DNA from: Escherichia coli O157:H7
GTDB taxonomy: Bacteria; Pseudomonadota; Gammaproteobacteria; Enterobacterales; Enterobacteriaceae
Strand: one strand, 5' to 3'
NCBI RefSeq assembly: GCF_013167455.1
Contig: NZ_CP038328.1
Length of the DNA stretch: 64,000 bases
In this document: positions 42,001 to 45,000 of the stretch, in pieces
Layout: each line of letters begins with the position of its first letter
Position numbering within the stretch: position 1 is the stretch's first letter
Program-made: the position numbers

Positions 42001-45000
42001 TTAAACATTCTGCCATTTTTCTCTTACTCATTCCCCGTCCTTCGTACCTTTGCCGGAGAATATTGATTAGCCCGGGATATTCCCCAAGCACCTCACTGAT
42101 AACGCGATCAATAATCAACGCCTCTGTGTCTGTACAATGTGACAACCAGCTCTTCTGCTTCCCTCTGGTCATATCCCGAAAAAATGCCTCAAGTTCCGGT
42201 TTTTCCAGCCCGGATTTCTTCATGCTGCGTAAAACCTCATTAACTGCTGTTTTCGTCAGCTTTTTCGAAACCAGTAACCGGTTAAACATATTTCCGGATT
42301 TACCCCCACCGATATACGACCACCGCCCCCACATCCGTAATTTCCCCTGGATCCAGACTGCTTCCAGCGTGTTCAGGCGTAAATGTTCGCCGCTTTTGCC
42401 TGTAATTTCCGGATATATCATATTTACGCTCACTCACTCTCAATTTTGTAAATCTTCACACCCAGCCGTCCACCAGATACTGGCTGACCACGTACAATAT
42501 TGATTTCATCAAACTGCTCATCGTCCATTAACACTCCCGCATGCGTCAGCGCATCCAGCGGTGCTTTCAGAATATTGTCCAGGTCACGACGACGCTTATC
42601 CGGTGGCTCTGCAATAATTTTTATTGCCAGCCGTCCGGACAGGCTTAATTTCAGTCGCTGCTGGCGAACAATAAGCACCACTGCCCGGCGATAACGCTCC
42701 CCGGCTTTTGATACAAAATATGTGCTGCCACGGCGTCGCCAGTAAGTGTTCACCGTCGGCGGGTAAGGTAAAACCAAATCTATGAGCATCAGTCACCTCT
42801 TTTACCCGAGCACGCCAGTCGCAAAGGCGTGATCAAGAAAACGAAAAATTAAATCAACCTGGGAACCATGCTTTTCTTCGAACGCCAGCGGATCCGCATG
42901 AAGCTCGTTGTGATGCTCCCGACACAGCGGTAGCGTGAAAATATCGTGGGATTTTGTTCCCATTCCGCCCTGACCATGACCAATCAGATGATGAGGATCG
43001 TCCGCTGGCTTACCACAACACGCACACGGCTGTGTCTTTACCCAGCGTGTGTATTTCTCATTTACCCAGCGGCGACGTTTAGGTCGTTTCATGAAGGATT
43101 CCGGAGACTCCGGATCAACGGCAATGCTGACCACCGTCTTTTCCTGTGGTGGGTTTTGCTGGTGGGCGTGAGGCAGCGGCGCAAGATTTTTTGTGCGCTG
43201 CTTCAGTATGATGGTGGCGGTCTGCTCTCCCGGTACGATGTCGCTTTCACGGTACATTGAGCGGATTTTTTCCGCACGCAACCCCAGCGAACGACGTAAT
43301 ACCGCTTCCGGTAGCGCGTCCGCCACCTGATTGCGGACCGCCCACCAGGATAATTCAGCCAGAGATAATTCACGCTCCTGCGTACCGCTTATTGCGTGAC
43401 CGATGACGTCAATCATCCATGCTGACAGGTTTTGATGAGCAAGTTGCTCGAGTGATTCGGATGTCTGGTCACGCAGCTGGTTGTCGCAGTGCCAGCACAA
43501 CACCATTGCGCCGGTACCATAACGGTGAATAACGGTTTCACTGTGATGATAGTCACCATGAGGCCACTGGCAGGATTTGACATGACGCAACAGCCAGTCA
43601 GACAGTGCACCAGCGCCACCAACAGCACGAATCACACGCTCATTGCTGAAAAACGGCAGTAATGATTTATCCTCCGCCAGCGGCTGGCGAACGGCAGGGA
43701 CGATGCCGGACGGCAGACCGCGCATGCTTTTCGGCTCCGGCTCCACAAGCACTCGAGGGTTATGGAATACCTGCATGGATTCACGGCCTGGTTTAAGGAC
43801 CACCACCCCAAGTTCCGGTACCGGAACAGGTCGAAGTAATACCCGCACGTTACCTCCAGATGCGTTGCTGGAATGTGCGGGACGGACGCGGTGGGCGCTC
43901 GGAGTACGGCAGCCTGACGTAGATTATCCAGTGACGATAATCGAGGCTGAGGGCTTTCCTAAACTCATACCCACGTCTGCGGTAGTTCTGAATCAGCCAT
44001 TCGGCCTGTTCTTCAGTGCATGGGGCGTGCCGGAACCAGTCAGATTTGAATGCATGAGAACGCCGCCCGTGCCTGCTGGCAAAGACGGCTGAATTATCAG
44101 AATTGTGTAGTCTGGAATTTTGCGCCATCGGCTTTCTCCGGTGGCACAGTGTTACTCAACAGGGGTTCAGCCCTGCGCTGAATTGTAGATGAATTCACTA
44201 ATCTTCAAAAGCAGAAAAACCAGCCTTAATCCCAGCTTCTTTCAGAGACGGCAACGATGTGACAAATTCATTTGCACGCAAAATAAAACCATCCGTCACA
44301 AGCCCATCCACAAAATGAATTAACGCAGCTCCACTCTTCCTTTGTTGAGACTGTAAACATTTAATACGGCAGTGGCTGACAATAGCGCCCTTCTCAACGC
44401 GCACAGTATAGAGGCCATCTTCACTAAAAATTTCACGTAATTCTTCGATTCTCATCAACAGAATCCTTTCTGAACCGCCCCGGGTTTCCTGGAGAGTGTT
44501 TTATCTGTGAACTCAGGCTGCCAGATCATCGTTTCCGATGGAAGCATAATAAGCTTTTTCTGCTTCTGCCGGAGGAGTATGGCCCAGCCTTCCCAGCAAT
44601 CGTCGATTGTTATACCAGTCCACCCACGTTAGTGTGGCCAGTTCCACTTCTGCACGGTTTTTCCAGCTCTTACGGTGTATTACCTCCGCTTTGTAAAGAC
44701 CATTGATGCTCTCAGCCATCGCGTTGTCATACGAGTCGCCTGTACTCCCTGTTGATGCCAGTAATCCGGCTTCTTTTAGTCGCTCCGTATAGGCCAGTGA
44801 CACATACTGAGAGCCTTTATCGCTGTGATGGATGGTGCCAGACGGACGACGGGCCCACAACGCCTGCTCCAGCGCATCCAGCACGAATGTCGTTTCCATA
44901 GACGATGAGACCCGCCACCCCACGATGTATCCGGCAAACACATCAATGATAAACGCCACATAGACGAAGCCCTGCCATGTGCTGACGTAAGTAAAATCAG

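Follow-up and report, generated by a model that had tools for sequence, protein, structure and literature searches.

An insertion sequence of the IS629 type ends directly in front of a small prophage gene in Escherichia coli O157:H7, and the three bases flanking the element on its two sides do not agree. This raises the question whether the element simply inserted at this position or whether adjacent DNA was rearranged or lost afterwards, and how the gene behind it is now expressed. The original prediction, made for the 64-kb stretch of DNA analyzed here (the window), hinted at the second possibility and suggested that expression may have come to depend on the end of the IS element.

The element itself is intact. 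Its terminal sequence is found at 44471 in plus orientation and as reverse complement ending at 45780, with only these two matches in the whole window, and the end-to-end alignment of both termini shows 13 identical bases, 3 mismatches and 9 identical bases. The ALIL pseudoknot sits where orfA and orfB overlap, which is the two-ORF arrangement with −1 frameshifting of IS629. Over its 1310 bp the element is 100% identical to copies in the O157 strains 28RC1, NE122 and F3398, where the matching copy is annotated as "IS3-like element IS1203 family transposase" and shows 0 differences, and to 11 copies in IMG/VR; the copies on pO157 and in SpLE1 show 1 difference. As identical 1310-bp elements are present in other O157 genomes, this is a real mobile element and no chance match. 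It agrees with IS629/IS1203 of the IS3 family in every property tested, including the length of the target duplication, and only the sequence identity of the two duplication copies is imperfect.

Table 1. Features at and around the IS629 insertion and related insertions nearby (window coordinates).
Feature	Coordinates	Strand	Basis or remark
IS629/IS1203-type insertion sequence, intact, 1310 bp	44471..45780	-	both ends = TGAACCGCCCCGG
IRL (left inverted repeat), orfA-upstream side	45756..45780	-	alignment of the two IS ends
IRR (right inverted repeat), end abutting the 85-aa gene	44471..44495	-	
IS629 orfA, 108 aa, HTH_Tnp_1	45400..45726	-	
IS629 orfB, 296 aa, HTH_21 and rve integrase core	44513..45403	-	
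ALIL pseudoknot (programmed -1 frameshift signal, IS3 family)	45329..45445	-	Rfam RF01497, 121.5 bits
Left copy of target duplication, TTC	44468..44470	.	base 44469 T vs C at empty site
Right copy of target duplication, TCC, same as empty-site triplet	45781..45783	.	empty-site comparison
85-aa conserved phage gene of unknown function, intact; Sakai ECs_1774 homologue, PHROG 340	44198..44455	-	0 mismatches to Sakai
Ribosome-binding stretch GAAAGGA (GGAAGGA in IS-free relatives), 8 nt 5' of ATG	44464..44470	-	
Sigma-70-like site TTGAAG-18-TAGAAT, 9/12	45851..45880	-	sole one in 44000-46400; 1 found vs 1.8 expected from shuffles
Intrinsic-terminator-like hairpin then T run, downstream of hokD and upstream of insertion point	45903..45920	-	
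hokD toxin gene, 51 aa, HOK_GEF, upstream neighbor	45989..46144	-	
hokD with sok	45989-46291	-	
paa	46480-47238	-	
Insertion in 28RC1/NE122/F3398	44411-44413		
Insertion in UTME-3, TTA	~44319		
Insertion in Z1323HEC0108, ATG, in rem homologue			
Insertion in 23CRST038, CTC	45796-45798		
Insertion in N10, left side rearranged			2 nt beyond the 23CRST038 site

Viewed in gene orientation (minus strand), the junction is ...GGTTCA/GAAAGGATTCTGTTGATG, which confirms that the IS terminus at 44471 abuts the ribosome-binding site of the ORF at 44198-44455, and that the flanks are TTC at 44468-44470 and TCC at 45781-45783. The distance of 5 bp originally given for the AAAGGA hexamer has to be corrected, as the hexamer occupies 44469-44464 and is thus 1 nt away from the IS end. 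The claim that no 3-bp duplication is visible stands as far as the flanks are not identical, but a 3-bp duplication of TCC is present, with one copy reading TTC and agreement at 2/3 positions. The duplicated triplet forms the 5' edge of the purine-rich ribosome-binding stretch, which starts at the first flank base.

This reading rests on a comparison with the empty site. A 1200-nt query, in which 600 nt of each flank were joined, was searched against 5,426 complete E. coli genomes and matched more than 40 O157 genomes, including Sakai (Sp9), EDL933, EC4115 and TW14359, over 1197 nt with a 3-nt gap as the sole difference. The empty site of Sakai is ...CAACAGAATCCT TCC AGATAAATAG... with contiguous flanks (...AATCCT TCC AGATAAA...), and relative to it the window contains 1313 extra bases, namely IS629 and a 3-bp copy of TCC, the left copy being TTC. 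Since the two flanks directly adjoin each other at the empty sites, which fall short of the joined flanks by exactly 3 bp, the window carries a simple insertion that duplicated the 3-bp target TCC. In contrast, a rearrangement or deletion next to the element, by which one copy of the duplication was removed or replaced, would account for the difference between TTC and TCC and has parallels at other IS629 copies (L121, L033, L098, L057, L047, L090, L012 and L013), the flanks of which are never contiguous in IS-free genomes. At the window element this explanation is refuted by the contiguous flanks of the IS-free relatives, by an excess of exactly the IS plus 3 bp and by the lack of any other mismatch for kilobases: compared with Sakai, there are zero differences from about 37,000 to 44,468 (7.4 kb to the left), and the nearest difference to the right is at 48,686 (2.9 kb). 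We therefore regard its probability as practically negligible.

The original prediction had also named an outcome that would speak against it, an IS-free relative that reveals a simple insertion with an intact duplication under different IS boundaries. The simple insertion was found, but the boundaries are the standard ones, because 37 other IS629 copies carry perfect duplications at the same positions of the element. Redrawing them cannot produce a perfect repeat, as the same boundaries yield perfect duplications in 35 IMG/VR copies and in those of UTME-3, Z1323HEC0108, pO157 and SpLE1. Most probably, an intact IS629, a copy-out/paste-in element of the IS3 family, attacked a TCC triplet with its ordinary 3-bp stagger. 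In gene orientation this target is GGA, 13-15 nt 5' of the ATG of the ECs_1774-type gene, and the adjacent DNA was neither deleted nor rearranged, with the duplication copy at the IRR reading TTC instead of TCC. The junction was found in 0/5,426 complete E. coli genomes and the T variant at base 44469 in 0/850 genomes carrying the flank; the insertion site is strain-specific and previously unrecorded.

The survey covered 62 distinct complete IS629 insertions, 59 of them from IMG/VR together with the window, L002 and L003. Perfect duplications were found in 35 copies, which in IMG/VR comprised 33 of 3 bp and 2 of 4 bp, and the other 27 copies were imperfect; perfect TTA, ATG and TTC duplications also occur in other genomes (UTME-3, Z1323HEC0108; TTC on pO157/SpLE1). 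According to the empty-site tests most of the imperfect copies are rearrangements, namely the eight loci listed above, including L098, L057, L047 and L090, for which a multi-segment BLAST query returned no contiguous flanks. With two perfect neighbors added, 37 perfect duplications stand against 3 clean imperfect ones among about 40 simple insertions. The three clean cases differ by one base in otherwise identical flanks. In the window TCC changed to TTC. The insertion in 28RC1, NE122 and F3398, 57 bp from the window site, reads GAG-IS-GTG with GAG at the empty site and is identical in three independent assemblies. The third case, L046, reads ATG-IS-ATC with ATG at the empty site, and its flanks show 0/594 differences from L020. 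The changes in the latter two cases, A to T and G to C, are transversions. In each case only one flank is altered, and this can be the flank on either side.

A further IMG/VR copy, L044, reads GTG-IS-GGG. Ten relatives have GGTGGGGGTG, which points to GGG as the target and to GTG as the altered copy, whereas L135, the sole relative identical on both flanks, has GGTGGGTG. Either the duplication at L044 is perfect and, as a rarity, 5 bp long, or L135 arose by excision between the 5-bp GGGTG repeats to which the imperfect duplication gives rise.

At the divergence between the window and Sakai, which is about 3.4e-4 per base outside the mosaic patch, about 0.08 mutated bases would be expected by our own arithmetic in the 240 duplicated bases of about 40 insertions, whereas 3 were seen, in a small sample that includes the window, picked for its mismatch, and IMG/VR insertions that may be of any age. 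Such a surplus speaks for an origin at, or close to, the time of insertion, and we consider it probable that the single-base difference arose during insertion rather than by later mutation. According to the latter explanation, a perfect TCC duplication was formed and a C-to-T point mutation subsequently changed the left copy. C-to-T is indeed the commonest kind of substitution, and the changed base is non-coding and located at the edge of the ribosome-binding stretch. However, the nearest 7.4 kb on the left and 2.9 kb on the right are free of further substitutions, a hit in one of the 6 duplicated bases is only about 0.2% likely at the window-Sakai density, and the other two cases in the survey are transversions, which makes a later mutation very unlikely.

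The mismatch could also be avoided by assuming an ancestor with an extra T (AATCCTTTCCAGAT), in which the duplication created by IS629 would be perfect but, with 2 bp (TC), unusually short. No mismatch is required in this case, and the ambiguity resembles the one at L044, where an imperfect 3-bp duplication can, on the basis of L135, be read as a perfect one of 5 bp. The extra T is present in 0/850 genomes carrying the flank, the best matches all end at base 68 of the 70-nt query, and no clear 2-bp duplication was found among the 62 copies, as L057 and L090 can be read in this way but are both rearranged. Such an origin is hardly credible.

A technical origin of the mismatch deserves more weight but is still unlikely. 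Base 44469 lies 2 nt from the repeat boundary, and reads from another IS629 junction may have introduced an assembly or polishing error there, with the true duplication being perfect. At least two copies with TTC on both sides exist in O157:H7 in the same orientation, on pO157 and beside the probable iee gene. Reads across their junctions have the IS end and TTC in common with the window junction, and mis-mapping of these reads would give exactly this T; in addition, the window is a single assembly with an insertion seen in 0/5,426 complete genomes. Against this, just one base departs from the true flank, and three independent assemblies agree on the comparable imperfect duplication 57 bp away. 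Imperfect duplication is therefore a real phenomenon at least at that neighboring site.

If the mismatch indeed arose during insertion, a possible though tentative explanation is that imperfect IS629 duplications are footprints of the insertion itself, in which a 3-nt 5' flap from the circle junction, carrying donor flank, is occasionally ligated into the target gap. After cleavage, the spacer of the circle would stay as a short 5' flap on each IS end. A flap from a 3-bp spacer would fit the 3-nt target gap exactly and might be ligated instead of being removed, and replication would then yield one flank with the donor triplet and the other with the target triplet. The one-sided change on either side and the two transversions among three cases are consistent with this scheme, and so is the presence of correctly oriented copies of the O157 type, with GTG flanks as reconstructed from L012/L013 and with TTC flanks on pO157 and in SpLE1. 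The candidate donors with TTC on both sides differ from the window element at position 325, and with about 20 IS629 copies per genome a chance match to any given triplet is expected in roughly 30-50% of genomes. According to Sekine and Ohtsubo, linear IS3 molecules reportedly carry 3-nt 5' overhangs derived from the spacer. A comparable situation is found in Tn916, where coupling sequences, i.e., donor-flank nucleotides, travel with the circular intermediate and end up on one side after the heteroduplex resolves. As Tn916 relies on a tyrosine recombinase, does not duplicate its target and has 6-bp coupling sequences, the likeness to the IS629 flap is an analogy only and not a membership. In the IS3 family, the circle junction of IS911, IS3 and IS2 consists of abutted ends with a short spacer of donor flank in a circular intermediate (PMC7780238), and IS629 has the hallmarks of this family. 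The published model for the family assumes that the spacer nucleotides are discarded and the gaps filled from the target, so that spacer retention is proposed here and is no described feature. In the literature searches, neither imperfect duplications in the IS3 family nor a retained spacer were found to be described.

Error-prone filling of the 3-nt gaps, e.g., by the IS-excision enhancer IEE, might serve as an alternative mechanism. IEE of EHEC acts on IS629, is an error-prone AEP polymerase and is known for excision and microhomology end-joining, not for insertion-gap repair (PMC9943667). Its probable gene in O157:H7 adjoins an IS629 copy, and the enzyme could in principle fill 3-nt gaps inaccurately, but this would need A.A or G.G mispairs in 2/3 imperfect duplications.

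GTG was also considered as a recurrent donor triplet, as it was found in 6/54 flanks of imperfect copies versus 0/33 of perfect ones in the first sample. This signal was mostly lost, because L121, L033, L012 and L013 are rearrangements and L044 is ambiguous, and at the left flank of L013 GTG is the native sequence. Dedicated scans of IMG/VR gave only 8 and 3 GTG-flanked ends without a usable denominator, and the GTG-flanked copies are scattered over lineages.

Concerning expression, the start codon of the 85-aa gene (ATG at 44455, minus strand) corresponds to the annotated start of Sakai ECs_1774, and the AAGGA core, the 8-nt spacing and the ATG are all unchanged; the altered base 44469 is located upstream of the core. 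The gene has been separated from its native upstream sequence, as originally proposed, and everything upstream is now 1313 bp further away. The second part of that proposal, a dependence on the IS end, finds no support in a consensus scan, which revealed no outward promoter-like site near 44471 on the minus strand. The same scan did not reveal a hybrid promoter of the IS3-family type (−35 in the IRR tip, −10 in the flank, 16-18 nt spacing). With no more than 16 nt between the IS end and the ATG, transcription from any hybrid promoter would begin at or beyond the ribosome-binding site. The stop codon of orfB is 57 nt upstream of the ATG, and no strong terminator was found on the minus strand between this stop and the IS end. 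IS629 has the same orientation as the early-right operon of the phage (O/P, paa, hokD, 85-aa gene, DUF968, rusA, Q). Because of this co-orientation, the intact AAGGA core and ATG and the lack of a promoter-like site at the IS end, the 85-aa gene and the downstream Q are most plausibly transcribed by read-through across IS629, as far as can be judged from the sequence, and probably not from a promoter at the IS end. If the sigma-70-like site at 45880-45851 is real, it would represent a local promoter that is now displaced by 1313 bp; the count of such sites is not above chance. The insertion may have polar effects on Q, the activator of the late genes, and on the small gene, which has no known function.

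The host prophage is a lambdoid, paa-carrying prophage of the Sp9/CP-933O type, integrated at ompW in an O157:H7-type chromosome, and the insertion lies within its hokD-to-nin region. All neighbors are encoded on the minus strand, in the order replication genes, paa, hokD and sok, the hairpin, IS629, the 85-aa gene, a 92-aa gene, a DUF968/HNH gene, rusA and Q, which agrees with the gene order in Sakai (O/P, paa, hokD, ECs_1774-1776, rusA, Q). The region 45781-64000, which starts in the nin region and continues over int, ompW and yciC into the chromosome backbone, is 99.9% identical to Sakai, and 30,000-44,468 contains 4 differing positions.

Differences from Sakai Sp9 are clustered, with about 290 in 24.3-30 kb (24341-30000) and about 150 in the tail-fiber/J region (15000-16000, 17000-17600), versus less than 1 difference per 3000 bases in the rest of the prophage; these blocks are mosaic recombination patches. 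At 17590-19600 the window contains about 2 kb of L-, K- and I-like tail genes (ORFs of 241 aa, 334 aa over the K-like region and 226 aa), where Sakai Sp9 has 263 bp, which reflects either a deletion of the tail module in Sakai Sp9 or its gain here by recombination. At about 16483 the J-like host-specificity gene lacks one G that is present in the intact 1158-aa gene of Sakai and is thereby split into two minus-strand ORFs of 391 aa (16414-17589) and 806 aa (14117-16537), which reflects either a frameshift pseudogene or a homopolymer sequencing error. Finally, about 85 nt at ~53210-53294 are missing from Sakai; the segment has the direct repeat CGCGAAA at its borders and an internal inverted repeat GCGCACGG...CCGTGCGC and could be a small mobile or hairpin element or the result of a slippage deletion in Sakai.

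The neighborhood of the insertion is itself a recurrent target of IS629-family elements. In a 0.25-kb stretch, which covers the 85-aa gene and the spacer down to the hokD terminator (window 44300-45800), at least six independent insertions occurred in different E. coli lineages (the window, L002, L003, L144, L145, L146 and L147 loci; Table 1), and all those checked are co-oriented with the operon. In S1-CAM-02-A (L145, NZ_CP145707.1) the IS629 at the homologous site is truncated and adjoined by a gene for a group II intron reverse transcriptase/maturase (ltrA). Two O157:H7 copies have perfect TTC duplications and differ from the window IS629 only at position 325. One is located on pO157 of Wll001 (L148), inside an IS1 remnant next to espP, and the other in strain 9234 (L149, NZ_CP017446.1, 3339-3340 kb), directly beside a gene with an AEP-primase domain, which is annotated as TOTE conflict system and is probably iee.

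The closest known counterparts are the IS629 insertions described by Rump et al. 2011 (PMC3271280), who found 62% of the IS629 copies in prophages, a duplication of 3-4 bp and identical duplications at only 21/47 sites. The window insertion shares the element, the location in an O157:H7 prophage and the duplication length of 3-4 bp; unlike at those sites, its non-identical flanks could be assigned to a one-base-imperfect duplication and not to a rearrangement. The insertion in 28RC1, NE122 and F3398 is another close counterpart, with an identical IS, the same orientation and prophage, and a simple insertion in which the middle base of the duplication differs. It interrupts the coding sequence of the 85-aa gene and has the altered copy at the IRL, whereas the window insertion leaves the gene intact and has the altered copy at the IRR.

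Taken as a whole, we are highly confident in the explanation of a simple IS629 insertion with a 3-bp duplication that is imperfect at one base, with probable read-through to the downstream genes and a mismatch that likely stems from the insertion. The insertion is an ordinary, routine new IS629 site in a well-known O157:H7 prophage and can serve as a strain marker; the recurrent one-base-imperfect duplication is its only mildly unusual aspect. As judged from a small sample, about 5-8% of clean IS629 insertions have such a duplication, and a comparison with the empty site is needed before non-identical IS flanks are read as a rearrangement. It may be that the mismatch is made during insertion; if so, this signature would extend the copy-out/paste-in model by one detail and might make it possible to trace donors, and if ligation of a donor flap is the true cause, imperfect flanks would record which copy was the donor.
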